A stretch of 64,000 nucleotides of DNA, taken from positions 183,213 through 247,212 of the forward strand of contig JAJFJQ010000035.1 in the NCBI GenBank assembly GCA_021773835.1, written 5' to 3'. The notes under the pieces are model-generated. The model saw only the letters and a program-made list of their open reading frames with translations, ran no database searches and was not told the DNA's origin. Below are positions 2,985 through 33,137 of this stretch, piece by piece. Made by a program: the position numbers and the translations under genes. Within the stretch, counting starts at the first letter, position 1, and each line of letters starts with the position of its first letter. Source of the DNA: Gammaproteobacteria bacterium. GTDB taxonomy: Bacteria; Pseudomonadota; Gammaproteobacteria; Ga0077536.

Positions 2985-4037
2985 TCAGACTAGCAAACCG
3001 CTATAGCTCACTTCGCCATTATTACCGGCGCCAACCGTTCCGATTTCGAATACGACTTCCCCAAGTTCGCTTAACACGGCGGCGACCTCGGCCGATTGCG
3101 CGTGTGGCACGATAACGGCCATCCCGATCCCGCAGTTAAAGGTTCGTAGTAGCTCCTGGTGTTCGATCGGGCCGGCTTTCGCTAACAACTCGAATATCGC
3201 CGGCAGCGTCCAACTATCGAGGTCAATCTTTACACTGGCCCCGGTGGGCATAACGCGCGGTAGATTTTCCGTAATACCACCGCCGGTAATGTGTGCCAAA
3301 CCGTGGATTTCGAACTCGTGCAAAATTTGTAGCAGCGGTTTTACATATATCCGTGTCGGCTCCATCAAGACATCAACGAGAGAGCGACCATCGATCTGGG
3401 TTGTGGCTAAGCTTGGTTGGTCAGCCAGTACTCGACGAACGAGCGAGTAACCGTTCGAATGGAGCCCACTCGATGCGATTCCGAGGATACGGTCTCCTAT
3501 TGCGACCGTGCTACCGTCCAGAATATTCTCGCGCTCTGCCGCACCGACACAAAAACCGGCCAGATCATAGTCACTGTCGGCATACATATCTGGCATTTCG
3601 GCGGTTTCGCCGCCCAATAGCGCTGCACCGGCGATCTCGCATCCGCGAGCAATGCCCTCTATAACCTGACGGGCTGTGGCCACGTCAAGCTTACCGCTGG
3701 CAAAATAGTCAAGAAAAAAAAGCGGCTCTGCGCCCTGCACAATGATGTCGTTGACGCACATTGCGACTAAGTCGATTCCCACTGTTGTATGCCGGGCGCT
3801 CTCCACCGCGAGTTTGAGTTTTGTTCCGACACCGTCGGTCGCGGAAACCAGCACGGGATCGCGGTAGCCGCAGTCCATCAGCGCGAACAGGCCACCGAAA
3901 CCGCCAAGGTCACTCGCAACCCCCGGACGATGGGTACGTTTCACTGCGGGCTTGATTTGCTCGACGAGGCTGGTGCCGCGCTCAATATCAACCCCGGCGT
4001 CCCGATAGGAGACGGGTTTTTTAATTTTTTCGGACAT
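2985..4037 (-). CDS. purM: Phosphoribosylformylglycinamidine cyclo-ligase
   Basis: Motifs SYRDAGVDI, ATDGVGTKL, SSGLHSNGYSL and FNCGIGM; start moved to ATG 4037 (MSEKIKK). Confidence 0.97.
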   Translation of the reverse strand: MSEKIKKPVSYRDAGVDIERGTSLVEQIKPAVKRTHRPGVASDLGGFGGLFALMDCGYRDPVLVSATDGVGTKLKLAVESARHTTVGIDLVAMCVNDIIVQGAEPLFFLDYFASGKLDVATARQVIEGIARGCEIAGAALLGGETAEMPDMYADSDYDLAGFCVGAAERENILDGSTVAIGDRILGIASSGLHSNGYSLVRRVLADQPSLATTQIDGRSLVDVLMEPTRIYVKPLLQILHEFEIHGLAHITGGGITENLPRVMPTGASVKIDLDSWTLPAIFELLAKAGPIEHQELLRTFNCGIGMAVIVPHAQSAEVAAVLSELGEVVFEIGTVGAGNNGEVSYSGLLV

Positions 4038-5413: not shown

Positions 5414-6505
5414 GTGGTAATTTCCGACTCGCAGAAATGGTTGATTGTCGCGCTCATCGCGCTCAGCGGATGGCTTGTGTACCTGCTTGCACCGGTGCTA
5501 ACACCGTTTCTAATCAGCCTATTGTTATCCTATCTTGGTGATCCGTTGGTCGATCGCCTGGAGCGATTGCGGCTATCGAGAACCGTCTCAGTCGTAATTG
5601 TTTTCGTCGGTATGCTGTTATTCGGGTTCGCAGCGATTGTTGTTGTCGTGCCCGCATTGCAGGCGCAAGTAACCATCTTATTAGAACATATCCCGACCGC
5701 GATCGATTGGGTTCAGCAATGGTTGCTGCCTAAGATGTCAGCCTATCTATCGACTGAAGAAATACCAATTGACGCCGCGGCAATCAAAGAAGCGCTGCTA
5801 GGCCATTGGGCCGAGGTTGGTTCTGTAGCACGAAATCTAATGGGGCACATCGGGCGATCGGGTCAGTTGCTGGCCGGTTGGATCACCTACCTGCTTCTGA
5901 TCCCGGTCGTGACATTCTATTTGTTACGCGACTGGGACATCTTGGTTCACAACGTACACGATTTGATTCCACGCTCTCTAGAGCCGACGGTGGTGAGCTT
6001 GGCAAGAGAAATTGATGCAGTGTTGGCTGAATTTTTGCGCGGTCAACTCACGGTCATGGCAGCGTTGGCTACCATGTACGTGATCGGGCTATGGGCCGTT
6101 GGCTTGGAATTGGCGTTCATCGTTGGTGTACTCGCCGGCGTTGTCAGTTTTGTCCCCTACCTCGGGGTTATCGTTGGGGTCATTGTTGCTGGTCTAGCTG
6201 CGCTTGTGCAATTCCACGATGTGATTCATATCGTTGGGGTGGTCGCTGTATTTGGGGTCGGCCAGCTACTCGAAGGTATGGTGCTGTCGCCGCTATTAGT
6301 CGGTGATCGTATCGGCCTGCATCCGGTTGCGGTGATTTTCGCGGTTATGGCCGGCGGACAATTGTTCGGCTTCATCGGAGTGTTGTTGGCGTTGCCGGTG
6401 GCAGCGGTAATTGTCGTGCTGCTGCGGCACTCGAAGACGGAGTATCAGAAAAGCGAAATATACGGGTCGAACCCGCCTAGCGAAATTATTGTCGATGGTG
6501 ATTGA
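5414..6505 (+). CDS. AI-2E family transporter (PerM-like)
   Basis: Multi-TM protein with LAYLGDP-like, FLRGQL, VPYLG, P.LVGDRIGLHPV and GGQLFGFIG.LLALP motifs. Confidence 0.92.
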   Translation: MVISDSQKWLIVALIALSGWLVYLLAPVLTPFLISLLLSYLGDPLVDRLERLRLSRTVSVVIVFVGMLLFGFAAIVVVVPALQAQVTILLEHIPTAIDWVQQWLLPKMSAYLSTEEIPIDAAAIKEALLGHWAEVGSVARNLMGHIGRSGQLLAGWITYLLLIPVVTFYLLRDWDILVHNVHDLIPRSLEPTVVSLAREIDAVLAEFLRGQLTVMAALATMYVIGLWAVGLELAFIVGVLAGVVSFVPYLGVIVGVIVAGLAALVQFHDVIHIVGVVAVFGVGQLLEGMVLSPLLVGDRIGLHPVAVIFAVMAGGQLFGFIGVLLALPVAAVIVVLLRHSKTEYQKSEIYGSNPPSEIIVDGD

Positions 6506-23675: not shown

Positions 23676-24986
23676 ATGGGACGGCAGAAAAGGCGCGAGC
23701 CGTATGTCATCAATATTGAAAATTTGTCACATGAGGGTCGTGGAATTGGGCGCCTTAACGGCAAAACTGTATTTGTCAGTGGCGCATTGCCGCAAGAGAC
23801 TGTACTAGCCCGAACAACTAAACGACGCGGTAGTTTTGATGAGGCAATTGCGCTTGAGATCCAGGTCGAAAGCGCCGATCGCATCGCGCCAAAATGTCCT
23901 CATGCAGGTGTTTGCGGCGGTTGTTCACTACAGCATTTGCCAGCTGAAAAACAAATTGAACACAAACAATCGGTTCTTTTCGAATTGCTTGCTCATCACG
24001 CAGGAGTCACCCAGTTTGTGCAGTTCCCGGCGCTCCTCGGTCCACAGTGGGGCTACCGACGCAAGGCGCGCCTTGGGGTAAAGTTCGTGCCAAAGAAGGG
24101 TGGGGCCTTAGTCGGATTCAGAGAAAAGGCTGCGCCCTACATCGCGGATATTAACGGTTGCGCCGTGCTGGATCCGGTCGTCGGGGGGAGGCTACTGGAG
24201 TTACGCCAGCTCATCGATGGATTGTCGATCCGGGATCGGATCCCTCAAATCGAAGTTGCTATCGGGGACAGCACCGCGGCCCTCGTATTTCGACATTTGG
24301 ATCCGTTTAACGACGCTGACATCGCCGCCTTCGCACAATTTCAAGAAAGTTCCGGGATCGGTATCTATTTACAACCGGGCGCTGAGAATTCGATGCATCG
24401 ACTAAACGACGCGACGGCGCTACTCAATTACAGTGTTGATGGCCTTCATTTCGACTTCTTGGCAACCGATTTCACCCAGGTCAATGGCGCAATGAACCGC
24501 GCTATGGTCAATTTGGTCCTGGAGCAATTGCAATTAAGCTCATCGGATCGTGTATTGGATTTGTTTTGCGGCCTTGGAAATTTTTCTCTACCGCTGGCGC
24601 GACCCGCCGCGCACGTGGTGGGAATTGAAGGTAGTGAAGATTTGGTATGTCGGGCACGGGAAAACGCGCTCAAGAACAACATCGATAATGTCAGTTTTCG
24701 CCGGGCGGATCTGGCTAACGCCGATGACGTAGCGAAGATAGACATGCGCGGTGTCACCAAATTGCTGCTTGATCCGCCGCGTACCGGGGCCGACGAGATA
24801 GTCAAAGGGCTCGACCTTCGGGACTTGAACCGCATCGTTTATGTCTCATGTAATCCGGTAACATTGGCCCGAGATACAAAAAGCATTCTCTCCAGCGGCG
24901 ATTTCGAACTTATTGGTGCTGGTGTTATGGACATGTTCCCGCATACGTCTCATGTTGAATCAATCGCGGTATTCGAAAATCGGTAA
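23676..24986 (+). CDS. rlmD: 23S rRNA (uracil1939-C5)-methyltransferase
   Basis: TRAM domain, CPHAGVCGGC Fe-S motif, DLFCGLGNF, DPPRTG, YVSCNP and DMFPHT.HVES. Confidence 0.96.
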   Translation: MGRQKRREPYVINIENLSHEGRGIGRLNGKTVFVSGALPQETVLARTTKRRGSFDEAIALEIQVESADRIAPKCPHAGVCGGCSLQHLPAEKQIEHKQSVLFELLAHHAGVTQFVQFPALLGPQWGYRRKARLGVKFVPKKGGALVGFREKAAPYIADINGCAVLDPVVGGRLLELRQLIDGLSIRDRIPQIEVAIGDSTAALVFRHLDPFNDADIAAFAQFQESSGIGIYLQPGAENSMHRLNDATALLNYSVDGLHFDFLATDFTQVNGAMNRAMVNLVLEQLQLSSSDRVLDLFCGLGNFSLPLARPAAHVVGIEGSEDLVCRARENALKNNIDNVSFRRADLANADDVAKIDMRGVTKLLLDPPRTGADEIVKGLDLRDLNRIVYVSCNPVTLARDTKSILSSGDFELIGAGVMDMFPHTSHVESIAVFENR

Positions 24987-26466
24987 GCGTTACGTAATTC
25001 TCATTGTTCTGGTTGCCGTAATCGGAGGATGTGGTCAAGCGAATGACGCTGCAATACGATTCGGATTAGCGACTCCTCCGGTCACACTCGATCCCCGCTA
25101 TGCTACCGATGCGACCTCGTATCGAATAATGCGGTTGATTTATCAGGCGCTAATCGATTTTGACGATAGCCATCGTGCAATACCAGCGCTAGCCACCTGG
25201 GAGGCGATTTCACCGTTACATTACCGATTCCTACTGCAGGACTCCCAACGTTTTCATGACGGCAGTACACTCGATAGCGACGACGTCATTGCGACCTATC
25301 GATCTGTGCTCGATCCGCGAACGGCGTCTCCACATCGGGGATCCCTAGCCAATATCGAATCGATCGAGGCGCCGACGCCGCTCACGGTCGATTTCTATCT
25401 CAAACAAGCCGATCCATTGTTTCCTGGCCTGCTTGTGCTTGGCATTATGCCGGCGGAGAAGGTGCGCGATACCTACGCTAGCGTGGAGCAACCGGTTGGT
25501 TCTGGACCATTTGCCGTGGAGGGGGTGCCAAAGGAGGCGCGATTACGGCTTCGTCGCCGCGCCGATGGACAATTGGTCGATTTCATTACGATTCGAGACG
25601 CGACCGTGCGTGCATTAAAAATACTGCATGGTGAGATCGATTTGATGCAAGGTTCGATGACACCTGAATTAGTCGACTGGTTGCACGGCAATAAGCATAT
25701 CGTGTCGGATCACCGACCAGGGACAACGTTTACTTACCTTGGATTCAATCTCAACGATCCATCTGTTGGTGACCTGCGGGTGCGTCGCGCAATCGCACAC
25801 GCGATCGATAGACGGTCACTAACGAAATATATGTTTGGCGATCGAGCTCGCCTCGCGCACGGAATTTTCACACCGAAGCATTGGGCTGGACATTCAAAAT
25901 TGCAAGCCGTTGATTTCGATCCTGCGCGTGCGCGTGAGCTACTCGCGGATTTGGGGTACAGCGACTCGAGACCGCTGCAATTAAGCTACAAGACGTCGAG
26001 CGACCATTTCAGGCTGCGCATTGCGACGGCGATTCAGGATCAGTTGGCCGATGTAGGGATCGAGCTTACGATATCGAGTTACGATTGGGGTACATTCTAC
26101 GCCGATGTAAAGGCCGGCAGGTTTCAACTGTACAGCCTCTCATGGGTCGGTCTTAAGCAGCCGGATATCTTTCGATATGCGTTCCATAGTTCATCTGTAC
26201 CACCGGAAGGTGCTAATCGAGGGCGCTACCACAGCGCCGCTGTCGATCAGATGATCGAGGTGGCTGAGTCGACAAAGGATCTGGCGACTCGTGCTGCTTT
26301 TTATCGGAATATTCAGCGACAGCTTCTGGTCGATTTACCCTACGTTCCACTATGGTATGAAGACACGACATTGATCGTGCGTGATTCCATTGTCGGATAT
26401 GACACCGGACTCGACGGTTATTATGATGGATTGGCGAAGACTCACAGGGTTACGACTAATGACTAA
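24952..26466 (+). CDS. Peptide/nickel ABC transporter substrate-binding protein (family 5), predicted lipoprotein
   Basis: Lipobox-like IGGC, TLDPR, FHDGS.L...DV, P.GSGPF and VRRAIAHAIDR. Confidence 0.9.
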   Translation: MLNQSRYSKIGKRYVILIVLVAVIGGCGQANDAAIRFGLATPPVTLDPRYATDATSYRIMRLIYQALIDFDDSHRAIPALATWEAISPLHYRFLLQDSQRFHDGSTLDSDDVIATYRSVLDPRTASPHRGSLANIESIEAPTPLTVDFYLKQADPLFPGLLVLGIMPAEKVRDTYASVEQPVGSGPFAVEGVPKEARLRLRRRADGQLVDFITIRDATVRALKILHGEIDLMQGSMTPELVDWLHGNKHIVSDHRPGTTFTYLGFNLNDPSVGDLRVRRAIAHAIDRRSLTKYMFGDRARLAHGIFTPKHWAGHSKLQAVDFDPARARELLADLGYSDSRPLQLSYKTSSDHFRLRIATAIQDQLADVGIELTISSYDWGTFYADVKAGRFQLYSLSWVGLKQPDIFRYAFHSSSVPPEGANRGRYHSAAVDQMIEVAESTKDLATRAAFYRNIQRQLLVDLPYVPLWYEDTTLIVRDSIVGYDTGLDGYYDGLAKTHRVTTND

Positions 26467-26944
26467 CCGTTTTGTCGAAATTTGTTTGTCAGAACAAACG
26501 CTAAACCTGTACGAACGGGACCGTGTCTTCCTGACGTTTCAGGTCTCTACCGCTGCCAACGGACCCGGCGAGCAAATGGACAGCGAGTGCACCCCGCGCG
26601 GGCGCCACGTGATCGATGAGAAAATTGGCCATGGCTGCGCTCCCAACACCGTATTTGTCGGTCGAGTTGCAACTGGCGAAATCTACGATGAAAAACTTGG
26701 TCGAATGCATCCTCGCAGAGATTGGATCCTGACTCGGATCCTGTGGTTACGCGGGCTTGAAGATGGCCGCAACAACGGCGGCAATGTCGATACCAAAGCG
26801 CGCTATATCTACATTCATGGATCGCCCGACAGTACGGCGATGGGTATCCCAGGGTCTCACGGCTGCATTCGCTTACACAATCACGATGTCACCCAGTTGT
26901 TTGATCTCGTTGAGGTTGGGACGCTAGTGAATGTCCTCGATTAA
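26459..26944 (+). CDS. YkuD / L,D-transpeptidase-family protein without a signal peptide
   Basis: Motifs TPRG.H, WILTRILWL.G.E and YIYIHGSP.....G.PGSHGCIRL (His/Cys intact); ATG 26459 overlaps the stop of the binding-protein gene. Confidence 0.9.
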   Translation: MTNRFVEICLSEQTLNLYERDRVFLTFQVSTAANGPGEQMDSECTPRGRHVIDEKIGHGCAPNTVFVGRVATGEIYDEKLGRMHPRRDWILTRILWLRGLEDGRNNGGNVDTKARYIYIHGSPDSTAMGIPGSHGCIRLHNHDVTQLFDLVEVGTLVNVLD

Positions 26945-27040
26945 GCGTTTTCTGATTTTAACATGGTTAACCATAACCTATTGATTAATAATAAAATATG
27001 TCGTTTCCGTAATCTGCTTGGAAAAAAAATTCTGCACGCG

Positions 27041-27068
27041 TGTCAACCGAAAGTCGATTGATGCGTTG
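27041..27068 (+). promoter_or_regulatory. Putative ECF-sigma promoter
   Basis: TGTCAACC...ATGCGTTG, i.e. AAC-N16-CGT, about 50 nt upstream of ATG 27116. Confidence 0.6.
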
Positions 27069-27115
27069 TTAGGGATGGAGAGATACAAAACTTCCTAATA
27101 ACGCAGGAGAACGAC

Positions 27116-27808
27116 ATGAAATCAACATCAATCATTTTGCTCGGTTTCGTCGCGGTGGCGTGTTTTCAGTCCCAAGCAATCTATGCGGATCCGGGCGACG
27201 TAATCGATGAACGTCTTGACCGGCGCGGAGACCGCATAGATGAGCGGCTGGATGCAAAGGGTGACCGGATCGAGCAGCGGCTAGACAATAAGGGTGATCG
27301 GATTGAAGACCGCTTTGATCGCAGGGCGGATCGTGCGCGGGATGCCGGAAAAGATGGCCTCGCCGATCGTCTGGAAGCGAAGGGTAATCGCATAGACAAT
27401 CGTCTGGATCGCAAGGGCGATCGAATTGAGAATCGATTGGACCGTCGTGGCGATCGGATTGATCGTCGTCTGGACCGCAAGGGTGATCGGCTCGAGCGGC
27501 GTTACGACAACCACCACGGCAACAACGATCAGGGCAACTATAATAGACCGGGCTACGACCGTGATCGCGTGGCTAATCGCATCGACAAGCGCGGCGACCG
27601 TATTGAACGGCGCGCGGACAGGCGCGGTGATCGGGTTAACCGTCGCTTGGATCGACGCTCCGATAGGGCGCTTGCCAGAGGTAACGATCGTCGCGCAGGA
27701 CGTCTTGACCGTGCCGGCGACCGCGCAAATCGACGTATCGACCGACGCGGTAAGCAGGCCAACAAGCGTCACGACCGAAGAGCGAACCGCGTTGCAAATC
27801 GGCGCTGA
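27116..27808 (+). CDS. Secreted Arg/Asp-rich 11-residue repeat protein
   Basis: AGGAG SD, Sec signal peptide (..QAIYA|DP), then repeats of G-D-R-I-D/E-x-R-L-D-R-K/R. Confidence 0.85.
   Translation: MKSTSIILLGFVAVACFQSQAIYADPGDVIDERLDRRGDRIDERLDAKGDRIEQRLDNKGDRIEDRFDRRADRARDAGKDGLADRLEAKGNRIDNRLDRKGDRIENRLDRRGDRIDRRLDRKGDRLERRYDNHHGNNDQGNYNRPGYDRDRVANRIDKRGDRIERRADRRGDRVNRRLDRRSDRALARGNDRRAGRLDRAGDRANRRIDRRGKQANKRHDRRANRVANRR
27194..27781 (+). repeat. Coding 33-nt tandem repeat units (about 13 recognisable hendecads in two modules)
   Basis: GDVIDERLDRR / GDRIDERLDAK / GDRIEQRLDNK / GDRIEDRFDRR ... GDRANRRIDRR; degenerate at the DNA level. Confidence 0.85.
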
Positions 27809-27892
27809 GGTGGCACCAATAGACGCAGGTGGGTATTGGATCCGGCATGTATAGTTGGTGATTGACCGGCGTCGGCCGACTGGAGGAACGGT

Positions 27893-28453
27893 CTGGATAA
27901 TTCGCAGGCGCTTAACAAATTCTTGGCAGGTATCGAGCGCCGCGCATTTCGGATGTCAGAAATTGCAACCGGAAATCGGGAGGATGCGCTCGATATCGTT
28001 CAAGATGCGATGATTAAGCTAGTCGACAAATATTCGGACCGCGGGCCTGACGATTGGGCACCGTTGTTCTACCGTATACTGCAGAGCCGGATATTGGATT
28101 GGCATCGGCGCACGACAGTCCGGCGGCGAGTTATGGGCTTCTTTCGTTCCGACAGTACCGAGGATACCGCAGGCGCCGACATTGAGGCTTATCCGGATAA
28201 CGAAAGTCGGCAGCCCGAGCGTCAATCGGAAAACGACCAGTTAATGCAGAGACTCGAGCCAGCGTTGGCTGCACTCCCACTGCGCCAGCAACAAGCGTTT
28301 TTAATGCGGATGTGGGAAGGGTTCGATGTGCGGCAAACCGCAACCGCGATGAGATGTTCCGAAGGAAGTGTCAAGACGCATTATTCACGTGCGCTTAAAG
28401 CGTTAAGAATGACTCTGCAAGAAGCTAACGGAGCAGACGATGAATCGAAGTAA
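27893..28453 (+). CDS. ECF RNA polymerase sigma factor (probable CTG start at 27893; track start 27923)
   Basis: Region 2 DALDIVQDAMIKL; region 4 LPLRQQQAFLMR...ETA-like...SEGSVKTHYSRA; GGAGG SD at 27882-27886. Confidence 0.9.
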   Translation: MDNSQALNKFLAGIERRAFRMSEIATGNREDALDIVQDAMIKLVDKYSDRGPDDWAPLFYRILQSRILDWHRRTTVRRRVMGFFRSDSTEDTAGADIEAYPDNESRQPERQSENDQLMQRLEPALAALPLRQQQAFLMRMWEGFDVRQTATAMRCSEGSVKTHYSRALKALRMTLQEANGADDESK

Positions 28454-28781
28454 CGAGACGCTCGTCGAGCAATGGCGCGAAGTGCTCGATACCGACGCGG
28501 AAAACATCGATGCGCGAACAGTTGCTCGACTGGCGCAGATTCGACGCAATGCAGTTTCGCGGCGCGACGTCCGGTCTACGCTACCACGATTCGCCCCTGC
28601 GATTGCTTTCGCGACGTCGGCGATTATGCTCGCGATCTTGTTACGCGTACCTGACGGATCGATACATGTATTAGACCCCGACGTTGTAATTTTCGAAATC
28701 GTTCTAGCTGACAGTGACCTCGAACTGATCGAAGATCTAGAGTTCTACCGCTGGCTGGATGCCAATGGAAACGCGGGGTAG
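28440..28781 (+). CDS. Putative membrane anti-sigma factor (DUF3619-like)
   Basis: ARLAQIRRNA helix, one TM segment, C-terminal DLELIEDLEFYRWL; overlaps the sigma stop. Confidence 0.75.
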   Translation: MNRSNETLVEQWREVLDTDAENIDARTVARLAQIRRNAVSRRDVRSTLPRFAPAIAFATSAIMLAILLRVPDGSIHVLDPDVVIFEIVLADSDLELIEDLEFYRWLDANGNAG

Positions 28782-28992
28782 TCGCTCATGGGCGCTTTTC
28801 TGTGTCGCTGTTTTTTTCTTGGCCAGCGCTGCTGCAGAGGAGTTTCCGGAGCTAGAGTTGCTCGAGTATCTGGCCGACTGGCAGGACGCGGATGGCGCCG
28901 TACTCGATCCAAGAATGTTCGACGACGACCCGCGTGCAGAGCCCGTGCCGGCGTCCGAAGACATGTCGAGAGTTCCCGATGCGTTTGAGTAG
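28765..28992 (+). CDS. Small exported acidic protein
   Basis: Signal peptide ending AAA|EE; mature part acidic (PELELLEYLADWQDADG..LDP); overlaps both neighbours. Confidence 0.65.
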   Translation: METRGSRSWALFCVAVFFLASAAAEEFPELELLEYLADWQDADGAVLDPRMFDDDPRAEPVPASEDMSRVPDAFE

Positions 28993-29608
28993 CGCAATCT
29001 TGTTCGTAGTGATCAGTTACGTCGGCTCTTGTCTGGCCGCTGACCCCAAATCGATCCCGTGGGCGGACCTCGGCGGCGAGGAGCAAAGGATCCTTGGGAA
29101 AGCGCAACCGAACTGGGACGACTACTCGGTAGAGCGTCAGCAAAAGTTGCTCGCCGGCGCACGAAAATGGAAGTCGCTTTCACACCCAGAGCGACAGACG
29201 ATGGAACGCAATTTGGCCAAGCTCAAGCAGATGGAGCCGGCGCGTCGAAAACAGGTATTACAGCGTTTGCAGCGATTTAAGTCATTGCCGGCCAAAGAGC
29301 GCGCGCGACTACGTGAATCCTTCCGCGCTTACAAGCGACTACCTACCGAGCGACGCCAGGAATTGCGACAGAAATGGCGCAAGAAAACCCCGGCAGAACG
29401 TCAAAGGTTTCGGAGCGAATGGAAACGTAAGCGATTAGATCGCCGCCGCGATGTCAATAATCAACGTAGAGATAGACCCGGTGTAATCCGTGATCGCCAA
29501 CGCCCCAATGATACTCCGCGCAAACGTTGGCAGCGGCAGGGGAAGCGGAGTGATTCTAAGGCGCGGCAGCAGCGTAATCGGGCACGAGGCGGGGTCCGGA
29601 AAGACTAA
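28979..29608 (+). CDS. DUF3106-like exported basic helical-repeat protein
   Basis: Signal peptide; five 18-residue W/F/Y-x-x-L-x-x-x-(E/R)-R/Q repeats then 15-mers; basic low-complexity tail. Confidence 0.78.
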   Translation: MRLSSAILFVVISYVGSCLAADPKSIPWADLGGEEQRILGKAQPNWDDYSVERQQKLLAGARKWKSLSHPERQTMERNLAKLKQMEPARRKQVLQRLQRFKSLPAKERARLRESFRAYKRLPTERRQELRQKWRKKTPAERQRFRSEWKRKRLDRRRDVNNQRRDRPGVIRDRQRPNDTPRKRWQRQGKRSDSKARQQRNRARGGVRKD

Positions 29609-29643
29609 TTACGATTAGGTCCCGTGATTCGGTTCAATTGAGA

Positions 29644-30147
29644 TTACGGATCCGTGCCGCCAGACGATTGTTGCACCAGGTGCTTAGCAAAGCGTTTTAT
29701 TTGCAGATCGTATAGCGCCAGCTCGCCGCCGGTTTTTATCGCCGCAATTGCGAGTCTGCCGACTAGCATGAGGAGCAAGATCCCAATCACCCACGCAACG
29801 AAATACGATAGGCGAAAACCCAATGCGTCATTCACCTCGCGGAGGCGAGCGCTACTCGCCAATCTTGCTTCCTCGGAGTCGCTAGATGAATCTGCAGCTC
29901 GGGGCTTTTCAGCCGCCGAGAGTGCCTTGTCCAGGTTGGAGCCTTTTTCGATCGCGCGCGCGAGCCGCTCGATGTTCTGCGGTTGCTGATAGAGGGACCA
30001 AGCTTCGTTAATTACCTTTAACCCGATCCATAAGCCGACGAACATCAAGATAAATCCGACGATTCGTACAATGAGCTGGGTTATTTGTGTGGTGTTGTCT
30101 AACCAACGATTCTCTTGGTCAACATCGTCGAATTGATAGCGGGCCAC
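29644..30147 (-). CDS. Hypothetical two-TM membrane protein
   Basis: 167-aa ORF with two clear hydrophobic helices flanking a soluble loop; fills the gap between the ECF cassette and the permeases. Confidence 0.7.
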   Translation of the reverse strand: MARYQFDDVDQENRWLDNTTQITQLIVRIVGFILMFVGLWIGLKVINEAWSLYQQPQNIERLARAIEKGSNLDKALSAAEKPRAADSSSDSEEARLASSARLREVNDALGFRLSYFVAWVIGILLLMLVGRLAIAAIKTGGELALYDLQIKRFAKHLVQQSSGGTDP

Positions 30148-30317
30148 TGATTATTCCCTGTGGAGTTGAAAAAAGAGCGGGCCAACTCTATCACAGCTAT
30201 AGGCGATCGACTCAAGAAATGACGTCGTCGGTGGTAGTCCAAGCTTAGTTTTGCTGGGCATGGCTGTTCGAGATAAGCTCTACGGGTGCTGCCTGACGAA
30301 TCGTTGCTCAAATCACC

Positions 30318-31238
30318 ATGGGATCACTAGCTGCTCATAGACTTGTTACCGCAGCGATCGTGCTTCTCGGTGTCTCGTCGATTACCTTTTTCCTACTGCA
30401 TTTAGTTCCAGGTGATCCGGTGGAGGTGATGTTGGGCGAATCGGCAAATATCGCTGATCGCGCACAACTTCGCGCCGAGCTTGGGCTCGATGCTCCGCTC
30501 CTTCAACAGTGGATGACGTTTCACAAAGGCTTGCTGACATTCGACTTTGGCAGCTCGCTGTATTCGAAAAAACCGATCGCGGCAGTGCTCGCAGAACGTA
30601 TCCCGTGGACGTTAATTCTCGCGGTTGCCAGTCTCTGCATCGCGATTCTTATCGCAGTCCCTTTGGGTGTGTTGGCTGCGTTGAGACCAAATACGTTGTG
30701 GGATTCGGTCGCCGCGACTGTGTCTCTACTCGGCGTATCGATTCCGAATTTTCTGCTCGGGCCGCTGCTGATCATTATATTTTCTATTGGACTCGGCTGG
30801 TTCCCCGTGAGTGGAACGGAGCGCATCACCTCGATCGTGCTACCCGCATTGACGCTCGGCGCATCATTGGCTGCGATACTGTCGCGCATGATTCGGGCGT
30901 CGTTGCTTGAGGTGTTGTCGGAAGAATATATCGTCTCGGCCCGGGCGCGAGGCCTTGGCGCGCTAGTGGTCGTCGGCTATCACGCGATGCCGAACGCCGC
31001 GCTTCCGATTTTAACGATTTTAGGTCTCCAACTCGGTGCGTTGTTAGGTGGCGCCGTAATTACCGAGATGATTTTCGCGTGGCCGGGAGTCGGGCAATTG
31101 ACAATTGAGGCGATACAGCGTCGTGATTATCCTTTGGTGCAGGCATGCGTGTTGGTTATTAGTTTTGCCTACGTAGCGGTCAACACGCTCACTGATCTCG
31201 TCTATGCCCGCGTTGATCCACGGATCAGGATGCAGTAG
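30318..31238 (+). CDS. Peptide/nickel ABC transporter permease (DppB/OppB-like)
   Basis: PGDPVE.MLG, EAA loop EEYIVSARARGL and E.IFAWPGVG......I.RRDYP.VQ. Confidence 0.93.
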   Translation: MGSLAAHRLVTAAIVLLGVSSITFFLLHLVPGDPVEVMLGESANIADRAQLRAELGLDAPLLQQWMTFHKGLLTFDFGSSLYSKKPIAAVLAERIPWTLILAVASLCIAILIAVPLGVLAALRPNTLWDSVAATVSLLGVSIPNFLLGPLLIIIFSIGLGWFPVSGTERITSIVLPALTLGASLAAILSRMIRASLLEVLSEEYIVSARARGLGALVVVGYHAMPNAALPILTILGLQLGALLGGAVITEMIFAWPGVGQLTIEAIQRRDYPLVQACVLVISFAYVAVNTLTDLVYARVDPRIRMQ

Positions 31239-32047
31239 TGCGGGTCGCGACAATAATGAGCATAGTGGTTGTCGGCTCATGGCTGACCGTCGCACTTCTA
31301 TCACCATTTGTCGTCGGAGAAGTCAACGCGATCAATCTCGAGCGCTTGTTCTCCGGACCGTCGAGCAGCGCGATATTCGGTTTTGATGATCTAGGCCGTG
31401 ACATCGGGCCGAGGATCCTCCGGGGTGCGACGGTATCTTGTACGGTTGCATTTTTTGTCGTCACCATATCAGTAGTGATCGGTACGACGTTCGGGATTTT
31501 TATTGCCTGGTACGGTGGCTTGGTCGATCTCATCGGTGTGCGTGTGATGGACGTGTTTCTTGCATTTCCGGGTATTTTACTGGCGATTGCATTGGCCGCG
31601 GTCCTAGGTCCAGGGGTCGAGAACGTTTTGATCGCTTTGTCGATTGTCAGCTGGGTGGGCTTTGCCCGCCTGAGCCGTGCGCAAACATTGAGTATTAAGC
31701 ATCGTGACCACGTCACCGTCGCTCAAGCGCTGGGTACGCCGGTATTCACCATATGTCGCCGTCACATTCTTCCCTTGATAGTGGCACCAATTATCGTTGA
31801 GGCGACGTTTGCCATTGCCGCTGTGATCATTGCGGAAGCTGGGTTGTCATTCCTCGGTCTGGGGGTGCAACCGCCGACCCCATCTTGGGGAGCGATGATT
31901 AAAGAAGGTACGCGATACCTATTGATCGCCCCGCATATGGCTCTTGGTCCGGGCTTGGCGCTGTTTTCTATCGTGATCGCCATCAACGCGCTCGGTGACC
32001 GACTCCGAGATAGCTTGCAAATCAAGCGCGGCGCGTTCCAAAATTGA
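31238..32047 (+). CDS. Peptide/nickel ABC transporter permease (DppC/OppC-like)
   Basis: FGFDDLGRD, D.FLAFPGILLAI, EAGLSFLGLGVQPP.PSWG and GDRLRD. Confidence 0.93.
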   Translation: MRVATIMSIVVVGSWLTVALLSPFVVGEVNAINLERLFSGPSSSAIFGFDDLGRDIGPRILRGATVSCTVAFFVVTISVVIGTTFGIFIAWYGGLVDLIGVRVMDVFLAFPGILLAIALAAVLGPGVENVLIALSIVSWVGFARLSRAQTLSIKHRDHVTVAQALGTPVFTICRRHILPLIVAPIIVEATFAIAAVIIAEAGLSFLGLGVQPPTPSWGAMIKEGTRYLLIAPHMALGPGLALFSIVIAINALGDRLRDSLQIKRGAFQN

Positions 32048-32078
32048 ACTCACTTCTCCCTCGGAGCGTGTAAGCAAC

Positions 32079-33137
32079 ATGACCCTTGGACCGTTGATGA
32101 CCGACTTTGATGGGCTTGAGTTGGATAGTGTCGATCGCGAAATATTGAGCCACCCCCTAATCGGGGGGGTCATTTTATTTTCACGTAATTATGCCGACCC
32201 CGAGCAGATCCGCGCGGTAACCGATGAGTTGCACGCGTTACGCTCTCCGGAGCTGTTGATTGCGGTTGACCACGAAGGCGGGCGAGTTCAGCGTTTTCGA
32301 AATGGCTTCACCGAACTACCAGCGGCTGCGATTATTGGCCGGGTGTACGACGACGACCCCGCCTTGGGCCTTGCATTTGCCGAACAATGTGGCTGGTTAA
32401 TGGCGGCGGAATTACGCAGCGTAGGTGTTGATTTCAGTTTTGCACCGGTGCTCGATCTCAGTAATCCGGCGAGCCGCATCATCGACGATAGGGCCTTCCA
32501 TCAAGACCCACATTGTGTGGCGCGGATTGCTCACGCGTACGTGAGAGGAATGCACAGTGCCGGTATGGCTGCAGTCGGAAAACATTTTCCCGGTCACGGT
32601 ACCGTAGCGGCCGATTCGCATTTGGAGTTGCCGGTCGATAAACGGAGTTATTACGATATCGCCAATAGCGACCTCATTAGCTTTCGCTTGTTAGCCCCGG
32701 ATATTGAAGGCGTAATGCCGGCGCACATTGTCTACCCTGAGGTCGACAATGAGCCGGCCGGTTTCTCGTCGGTCTGGGTGAAAAGCGTATTGCGTCAAGA
32801 GCTGGATTTTCAGGGGATTGTTTTCAGCGATGACCTTAACATGGCAGGGGCATCGGAAGTTGGTGGCGTCGTTGAACGCGCCTCCATAGCAATTTCCGCA
32901 GGTTGCGATGTCATTCTTCTGTGCAACGACAGGCCTGGCACTGAGCAATTACTTTCAAACTTTAGCGCACAAGTCGAACCAGTAACCCAGGTTCGGCTTA
33001 TGCGAATGCATGGCAAAGGCGAGCCCGGACACATCGAGGATCTCGCTGACGACGAGAGGTGGTTAACGGCTCGAACCCATATCGCTCAAGTTCATCAAAC
33101 ACGAATGCTCGACCTCGGCGACGATATGCTGGGTTAA
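32079..33137 (+). CDS. nagZ: Beta-N-acetylhexosaminidase
   Basis: Motifs GGVILFSRNY, VDHEGGRVQRFR, KHFPGHG...DSH and FSDDL.M.GA. Confidence 0.96.
   Translation: MTLGPLMTDFDGLELDSVDREILSHPLIGGVILFSRNYADPEQIRAVTDELHALRSPELLIAVDHEGGRVQRFRNGFTELPAAAIIGRVYDDDPALGLAFAEQCGWLMAAELRSVGVDFSFAPVLDLSNPASRIIDDRAFHQDPHCVARIAHAYVRGMHSAGMAAVGKHFPGHGTVAADSHLELPVDKRSYYDIANSDLISFRLLAPDIEGVMPAHIVYPEVDNEPAGFSSVWVKSVLRQELDFQGIVFSDDLNMAGASEVGGVVERASIAISAGCDVILLCNDRPGTEQLLSNFSAQVEPVTQVRLMRMHGKGEPGHIEDLADDERWLTARTHIAQVHQTRMLDLGDDMLG

Follow-up and report, generated by a model that had tools for sequence, protein, structure and literature searches.

What does a sigma factor control when an exported repeat protein of no curated family stands at the head of its gene cluster? 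The question is raised by a 64,000-nucleotide (nt) stretch of DNA from a gammaproteobacterium (GenBank assembly GCA_021773835.1, contig JAJFJQ010000035.1, positions 183,213 to 247,212 of the forward strand), referred to here as the window, in which a promoter-like element and five genes occupy positions 27041–29608. We read the ensemble as an autoregulated module of the extracytoplasmic function (ECF) kind, and put the probability of that reading at roughly 0.7: a sigma factor of the NF006550 family, a DUF3619-like anti-sigma factor and two periplasmic proteins, one small and acidic and the other of the DUF3106 family, would be made under a promoter that the sigma factor itself serves. The first gene, the RD-repeat or RD gene, is, judged by comparison of sequences, the most consistent target of the promoter motif, even when it is unlinked from the sigma gene. 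The parts are as follows.

27041–27068, + strand: ECF-type promoter-like element, a motif read in the sequence and conserved in related loci
27116–27808, + strand: RD-repeat gene, 230 amino acids (aa), with an ATG start and AGGAG at 27105–27109
27809–27892, + strand: RD–sigma spacer, 84 nt, with the Shine-Dalgarno sequence GGAGGA at 27882–27887
27893–28453, + strand: ECF sigma gene, 186 aa from a CTG start, by Pfam and NCBIfam
28440–28781, + strand: anti-sigma candidate, 113 aa, single-pass; near-threshold DUF3619 match, topology read from the sequence
28759–28992, + strand: small acidic exported protein, 77 aa, with a signal peptide and a conserved motif
28979–29608, + strand: exported DUF3106 protein, 209 aa, by Pfam

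All five genes that a first-pass annotation had placed here are present, and the last four do overlap in a chain, as it described, by 14, 23 and 14 nt. The AAC-N16-CGT element it had pointed to is there too, with AAC at 27045–27047, CGT at 27064–27066 and exactly 16 nt between them. In full, the -35 box reads TGTCAAC(C) at 27041–27048 (TGTCAAC itself is 27041–27047), and the -10 box (G)CGTTG at 27063–27068. Of the loose form, AAC-N16-CGT, the window has 27 copies where 39.4 would be expected, which is at or below chance, and so the significance of the element comes from comparison only. The tighter form GTCAAC-N15-18-CGTT is found twice, against 0.5 expected, and the second match, at 6042, lies inside an open reading frame; as this is the lone other match to the extended motif, the window yielded no further members of a regulon.

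Comparison gives the element its meaning. Eighty loci with relatives of the sigma factor were taken from species-representative genomes, and 40 of them are of the gammaproteobacterial type (sigma plus DUF3106). The motif TGTCAACC-N16/17-CGTT(A/G)T stands upstream of the sigma gene in 38 of these 40, and one of the two motif-negative loci offers just 148 nt of upstream sequence. Under the strict N16 pattern, the motif lies less than 250 nt from the sigma start in 22 loci, all without an extra gene (typically about 140–200 nt), and 497–943 nt before it in 10 loci, all with an extra first gene. Distance tracks the extra gene, in other words, and the motif stays ahead of whichever gene comes first; no second copy was found in the interval from the first gene to the sigma gene, either in these loci or in the window. 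An autoregulatory ECF promoter behind which a gene has been inserted would be expected to lie just so. The consensus over 123 unique instances is TGTCAACcaat-N-GCGTTnT. Betaproteobacterial loci are without the upstream TGTCAACC motif, and a few of them have GTAAACC-N16-CGTT. In one sub-clade the -35 box is TGTCGTC or TGTAGAC, and region 4.2 of the sigma factor reads CSESSVKTH there versus CSEGSVKTH elsewhere, with serine for glycine. This covariation would fit co-evolution of sigma factor and promoter, weakly so because it is probably a single event in one clade.

The motif can also be approached from the side of the RD gene. A metagenome scan with the single RD protein as query gave 80 further loci (701 kilobases), 74 of them with at least 130 nt of sequence upstream. 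In 66 of the 74, TGT[CA][AG][ATC]C-N16-CGT[TG] lies just upstream of the RD gene, about 50 to 93 nt before its start codon and typically 63 to 72 (75 in the window); the other eight have one-base variants of the motif. Both strands of the 701 kilobases hold 74 copies of the pattern in all, and 66 are within about 200 nt upstream of an RD gene. A sigma gene follows the RD gene within 300 nt in 43 of the loci, and in 10 a single gene, for a DUF3106-like repeat protein of 244–260 aa, separates the two. Ten more have no sigma gene within at least 1.5 kilobases downstream, where opposite-strand genes follow, and the motif is kept all the same. Three additional unlinked RD copies (L083–L085), found by way of protein homologues, carry the motif or its GTAAACC variant. 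The order RD–sigma–DUF3619-like–DUF3106 is found again, motif included, in Lysobacter helvus and at one further locus. Since unlinked copies still carry the motif, the link between RD gene and promoter is independent of physical linkage to the sigma gene; and since the motif precedes 66 of 74 RD genes, copies without a nearby sigma gene included, the RD gene is marked as its signature target. The 38 sigma loci and the 66 RD genes together bear out the call of a promoter-like element at 27041–27068, which the sigma factor presumably uses. The suggestion that the RD gene is the first and probably main output gene stands in part: it is the signature target, but it is not core, for the extra first gene is an RD homologue in only seven of the 40 sigma loci (L001, L002, L004, L019, L024, L027 and L028).

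Other genes have been seen in this neighborhood. The promoter-proximal slot holds secreted EF-hand calcium-binding proteins, above the Pfam threshold, at L003 (735–1211) and L036 (3182–3850), and a 134-aa fragment of the beta-lactamase family with an SxxK motif at L030 (3515–3919). A second exported repeat protein is encoded between the RD and sigma genes at L091 (3312–4091), L092 (2348–3130), L099 (4322–5056) and L138 (3146–3880). This protein, of 244–260 aa and from one metagenomic lineage, has repeats of the MSPEQRE type and matches DUF3106 below threshold, at 23.5 bits; a DUF3106 gene like that of the window was not detected after the sigma gene in these four loci. Upstream of the RD gene of L082, at about 3670–3960, units of about 36 nt, CTTCCCGCTTGCGGGAGAAGGAAG..., are repeated in tandem.

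That the cluster is built around an ECF sigma factor, as had been proposed, is confirmed by its domains. The protein has sigma regions 2 and 4 only, and its 186 aa fall within the roughly 170–220 expected of ECF (group 4) factors. Pfam scores are 27.5 bits for Sigma70_r2 (cut-off 24), 56.1 for Sigma70_r4_2 (25.7) and 23.5 for Sigma70_ECF (21.1), and TIGR02937 gives 83 bits (42.9). The NCBIfam equivalog NF006550 (PRK09047) is matched at 235.5 bits (cut-off 173), with residues 3–178 aligned to model positions 10–190 of 194. Two marks of a cognate ECF arrangement are present as well: a membrane-protein gene overlaps the sigma stop codon, and an AAC/CGT motif lies upstream of the operon. Solved structures are distant, the closest matching in sequence at an expect value (E) of about 5e-6 only. 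The family itself is large: no fewer than 7,890 protein clusters match at E ≤ 1e-20, and there are at least 579 confirmed loci in species-representative genomes.

The ECF18 label tentatively attached to the cassette finds no support. According to PMC7826278, ECF18 (RpoT-like) has an RskA-like anti-sigma factor as its cognate regulator, and the protein encoded downstream of our sigma factor matches no RskA or zinc-finger anti-sigma family in Pfam at E up to 0.1; it has only the near-threshold match to DUF3619. Neither the main text of the ECF reclassification paper nor the paper on orthogonal sigma switches names DUF3619, DUF3106 or this motif for a proteobacterial group, and the one occurrence of TGTCAACC found is in a promoter of ECF39.

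For the sigma gene, the start codon appears to be a conserved CTG. Between the stop codon at 27863 and the TTG at 27923 (residue 11) there is no in-frame ATG, GTG or TTG, and the CTG at 27893 is preceded by GGAGGA. CTG with an upstream Shine-Dalgarno sequence is found at the aligned position in about 30 distinct loci (L005, L008, L013–L015, L018, L020, L023, L025, L031, L032, L035, L037, L038, L040, L044, L086, L088, L089, L091–L093, L095, L098, L099, L102 and L135–L138), 5–9 nt past a GGAGG-like sequence, and in 12 of these the first in-frame ATG, GTG or TTG comes no earlier than residue +10 to +20. Other lineages use TTG, GTG or ATG at the aligned start, and the betaproteobacterial orthologues ATG. 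Automated calls for the window sigma factor and its close relatives give 165–166 aa instead, starting at an internal methionine (Met21).

Two of the three genes behind the sigma gene form, with it, a recognizable context. Immediately after the sigma gene, the anti-sigma candidate matches Pfam DUF3619 (PF12279) over its N-terminal part (model positions 4–57 of 130). The Paraburkholderia protein at the same position scores 131.7 bits against DUF3619, and homology is therefore likely, the window copy being divergent and shorter. By the positive-inside rule, the protein would have about 49 cytoplasmic residues, a membrane helix at about 50–68 and a periplasmic tail. That tail ends in an acidic motif, DLELIEDLEFYRWLD, conserved as (D/E)L(D/E)FYxWL, with F and W invariant in 25 sequences. 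The last gene product matches DUF3106 (PF11304) at 77.3 bits against a threshold of 24.3, over model positions 1–103 of 104. It is basic, with helical repeats of about 15 residues and an arginine/lysine-rich tail predicted to be disordered. An AlphaFold model, which rests on two sequences only and is of moderate confidence (predicted local distance difference test, pLDDT, 70–82 over residues 23–150), places helices at 51–66, 69–84, 87–101, 105–119, 123–134 and 138–164, and no relatives were found in the PDB by sequence or by Foldseek. In betaproteobacterial loci the genes after sigma score 131.7 bits for DUF3619 and 114.5 for DUF3106, and a gene for an RDD-family protein comes next. These unambiguous matches make the sigma/DUF3619/DUF3106 core real, and uphold its earlier description as an ECF context. 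Full-text searching of the literature for both DUF names turned up nothing of relevance.

Between the anti-sigma and DUF3106 genes lies the small acidic protein, which has a signal peptide, the motif P-x-L-(D/E)-(L/F)-L-E-(F/Y)-L-(G/A)-x-W and an acidic tail, and no match in Pfam or NCBIfam. It had been taken for an extra, unexplained component. This is not so: an open reading frame with its motif occupies the same place throughout the gammaproteobacterial loci, and the protein is conserved across that branch; it is absent from the betaproteobacterial loci. The notion that it mimics the anti-sigma tail, both being acidic and bearing aromatic residues, was set aside, profile–profile comparison giving a probability of 1% and a single aligned column.

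In the strongly basic RD protein, a signal peptide is followed by eight clean 11-residue repeats, G-D-R-I-[DE]-x-R-L-D-x-[KR], arranged as two blocks of four around a DAGKDGLA turn. These make up one module, an architecture common across the family; in the window copy it is followed by a His/Asn/Gly/Tyr spacer and by another module, which is degenerate. Identity at lag 11 is 45%, and the mature protein is 29% arginine and 19% aspartate, with a net charge of +22. Its 153 homologues include none with an informative name (one is labeled RcnB by the Joint Genome Institute, JGI), and neither Pfam nor NCBIfam has a curated family that matches it. An AlphaFold model built from 54 family sequences has a mean pLDDT of 84 and long helices at 26–76, 80–139 and 149–229. 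Foldseek returned only insignificant hairpin matches with this model (ESCRT-III, PspA and Vipp1, E of 0.45 or more), and the best PDB sequence match is apolipoprotein A-IV, at E = 0.17. Membership of the Apolipoprotein A1/A4/E family (PF01442) was rejected at 28.4 bits against a cut-off of 90. So was a CpxP/Spy type, for both the RD and the DUF3106 proteins: no LTXXQ match was found in Pfam at E up to 0.1, and no such structure by Foldseek.

Put together, these parts suggest the following circuit. At rest, the cytoplasmic N-terminus of the anti-sigma factor would hold the sigma factor. A signal in the envelope would be read in the periplasm through the acidic tail of the anti-sigma factor, the DUF3106 protein and the small acidic protein, and the sigma factor set free. 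With RNA polymerase it would then start transcription at TGTCAACC-N16-CGTT (27041–27068), into the RD gene first and the four regulatory genes thereafter, and the outcome would be positive feedback plus a burst of RD protein. The weak CTG start might keep translation of sigma low relative to that of the RD protein. The RD protein, once exported, might act as an envelope effector—protective, or handling polyanions or cations—or possibly as a modulator of the feedback. The ‘envelope stress’ role is something we infer, as are the interactions among the partners, the kind of signal sensed and what the RD protein does biochemically.

Several observations weigh against this reading. The covariation of -35 box and region 4.2 may be one event in one clade. 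The DUF3619 match of the anti-sigma candidate falls just under the Pfam threshold (21.8 bits versus 22.2), and a close relative, L087, has CCG rather than CTG at the proposed sigma start. The RD and DUF3106 models bear no significant resemblance to any solved structure, and their functions are therefore guesses. A purely autoregulated sigma factor needs a basal promoter, and a pattern scan of 26800–30400 found none of the sigma-70 type. And in eight of 44 related RD–sigma spacers there are strong terminator-like hairpins, with GC-rich stems of 10–12 base pairs and T-rich tails (L019 at about 3895–3983, L024 at about 3909–3986, L027 at about 3907–3986, L090, L112 and L135–L137; the tails have six or seven T in L019, L024 and L027).

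With such hairpins the RD gene may, in some lineages, be transcribed largely on its own; they also lend color to a different arrangement for the window: the ECF promoter would serve the RD gene alone, and a separate promoter in the 84-nt spacer would serve the other four genes. RD would then belong to the regulon and lie outside the sigma operon, and the source organism would have no autoregulation, or only an indirect form of it. At least 10 metagenome loci, and L083–L085 besides, have a monocistronic, unlinked RD gene, -10-like boxes occur 50–70 nt before the sigma start in leaders without a cargo gene, and the window spacer itself contains TATAGT at 27850–27855. That hexamer is not conserved in the four closest relatives, however, and a conserved housekeeping promoter in the spacer was rejected on this ground; nor did pattern scans find a sigma-70-type promoter there, or a terminator-like hairpin with a T-tract in 27809–27892, just as the first-pass annotation had seen no U-tract terminator after the repeat gene. 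The ECF motif does not recur in the spacer. Thirty-six of the 44 distinct spacers from other loci are likewise free of terminators, and where no cargo gene is present the motif directly precedes sigma, so that loss of read-through would abolish the autoregulation usual in the family. An RNA element in the spacer was also considered and dropped: the predicted fold is mildly more stable than that of shuffled sequence (z = -2.1), and Rfam has no match. Since the spacer shows neither a terminator nor a further motif, nor a predicted housekeeping promoter, it is quite probable that the RD and sigma genes are co-transcribed in the window, and two separate units seem unlikely, if not negligibly so. 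Elsewhere the hairpins may act as attenuators, by which the proportion of RD protein to sigma factor is fixed; in some lineages read-through is probably attenuated, which would make that proportion high.

Two further explanations concern the element and the frame behind it. Boxes of the AAC/CGT kind are common to many ECF groups, and ECF39, from actinobacteria, is a group different from this one. An engineered ECF39 promoter nonetheless carries TGTCAACC-N-CGTC (PMC3817407, supplement), and the promoter architecture is thus of a known ECF type. With so similar a -35/-10 pair in use by an unrelated group, and the dependence of the element on our sigma factor only inferred, TGTCAACC-N16-CGTT might be recognized by another ECF sigma factor, or might even be an operator for a DNA-binding regulator. 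We consider this improbable. The element accompanies the sigma family in widely differing genomic contexts, and where the -35 box varies, so does sigma region 4.2. Two boxes with a spacing of 16–17 nt have the layout of a promoter, unlike a palindromic operator. Least credible of all is the idea that the RD frame is an open, low-complexity DNA repeat that makes no protein, with the promoter serving sigma through a long leader. The region is repetitive, to be sure, and there are long open frames on its opposite strand, too. Against this, the gene has a signal peptide and a Shine-Dalgarno sequence, 153 homologues share its architecture, stand-alone copies carry their own promoter, and the predicted helical model is confident. 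Differences between the repeats, moreover, are concentrated at third codon positions (214, versus 89 and 58 at the other two), which means that the protein sequence is under selection; by this measure RD is a real coding gene under purifying selection.

If the autoregulated module is accepted, what might it sense? One conjecture, which we think doubtful, makes the ionic state of the envelope the thing that the system senses and buffers; an example would be the loss of divalent cations that bridge lipopolysaccharide. It is suggested by the contents of the promoter slot, which are RD proteins in some loci and secreted EF-hand proteins in others (L003 and L036). If true, the RD proteins would constitute a new class: helical, polycationic proteins of the periplasm, built of 11-residue repeats, which stabilize anionic polymers of the envelope when cations are scarce, and DUF3106 and the small acidic protein would be a new periplasmic sensing pair acting on the anti-sigma tail.

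The surroundings of the cassette look like a cluster for peptide uptake or cell-wall recycling, within which it would lie together with one more gene. On one side, at 24913–26944, are genes for a family-5 solute-binding protein and an ElsL-like YkuD L,D-carboxypeptidase, and on the other, at 30318–33137, for two ATP-binding cassette (ABC) permeases and a glycoside hydrolase of family 3 (GH3, NagZ-like). Right after the cassette, and convergent with it, a gene on the - strand (29644–30147) encodes a membrane protein of 167 aa that matches no family. The same protein is encoded in 10 loci, and its identity in close relatives is 87% and 79%, versus 40–77% for the cassette genes. The closest relatives carry the cassette in the same five-gene order and the same genomic place. 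Its GC content (0.56) is near that of the flanks (0.52–0.53), and recent horizontal transfer was set aside on these two grounds. The neighborhood is common to close relatives, and distant ones have priA-like, ilvI-like or pntAB neighbors instead. In Lysobacter helvus (L081; AP024546.1, 540674–549267), RD, sigma, anti-sigma and DUF3106 genes lie between pntB/PNTB_4TM and pntA-like transhydrogenase genes, and the cluster is without the small acidic gene. In three Cocleimonas loci (L007, L009 and L010, about 3165–3830, - strand), a divergent gene upstream of the sigma promoter encodes an exported arginine/lysine-rich protein of 203–216 aa, the first 70 residues of which have no Pfam match. No paralogue of RD or sigma was found within the window.

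The families NF006550, DUF3619 and DUF3106 are already catalogued, and the sigma family, which is widespread in Gamma- and Betaproteobacteria (Burkholderia, Paraburkholderia, Cupriavidus and Lysobacter among them), appears to be unstudied. Four features seem to be new: the conserved promoter, the status of the RD family as its signature target, the small acidic protein and the conserved CTG start. The analysis thus supplies a predicted promoter, a signature target family described in no database, and a corrected start for a sigma factor from which automated gene calls cut about 20 residues. With a reporter for the predicted promoter, a sigma/anti-sigma pair and a single effector gene, the system could be put to a direct test. 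Should the promoter have the specificity that its conservation leads one to expect, synthetic biology would also gain an orthogonal ECF switch.

How does such a cassette compare with known systems? In the orthologous clusters of Paraburkholderia, Cupriavidus and Polynucleobacter, sigma is 43–48% identical and the order sigma–DUF3619–DUF3106 is the same; unlike the cassette of the window, they have no RD gene or small acidic protein, and an RDD-family membrane protein follows. In Escherichia coli, rpoE-rseA-rseB-rseC is an autoregulated ECF operon that encodes a single-pass anti-sigma factor and periplasmic accessory proteins, and the general plan is alike here: the operon is autoregulated on our reading, the anti-sigma gene follows and overlaps the sigma gene, and periplasmic partners are encoded alongside. 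The details differ, however. The anti-sigma factor, unlike RseA, is DUF3619-like with about 49 cytoplasmic residues, the DUF3106 and small acidic proteins resemble the Rse proteins in neither sequence nor fold, and the operon has the TGTCAACC-N16-CGTT motif for its promoter and an exported repeat protein for its first gene.

For a cytoplasmic segment of 49 residues that would hold a sigma factor, the closest analogy is CnrY-CnrX-CnrH of Cupriavidus metallidurans, which has a tiny single-pass anti-sigma factor and an all-helical periplasmic sensor. Both systems combine a very small anti-sigma factor, with a short sigma-binding segment, and a helical periplasmic protein encoded nearby. There is no match in sequence, though, the gene order is different and nothing suggests a metal-binding site; the only Foldseek match to a Cnr entry, 4cxf, is meaningless (E = 6, template-modeling score, TM, 0.12). 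The RD protein, for its part, recalls CpxP, Spy and ZraP, exported, charged, all-helical proteins that are the most strongly induced of their envelope stress regulons, and of which CpxP feeds back. RD is likewise charged, helical and exported, and would hold the same place in its circuit. It is built of 11-residue repeats with 29% arginine, unlike those proteins, and they are controlled by two-component systems rather than by an ECF sigma factor. In its 11-residue periodicity and long helices RD is also like the apolipoproteins A/E, which provide its best sub-threshold Pfam and PDB matches, and the group-3 late embryogenesis abundant (LEA) proteins. Its repeat differs from theirs in having only two hydrophobic positions (Ile and Leu), and in being rich in Arg/Asp, not Lys/Glu/Ala. 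rpoE-rseABC, CnrYXH and CpxP/Spy are thus working analogies, none of them a relative by sequence or fold. The cassette itself is a variant of a well-known kind of ECF system, not a new kind.

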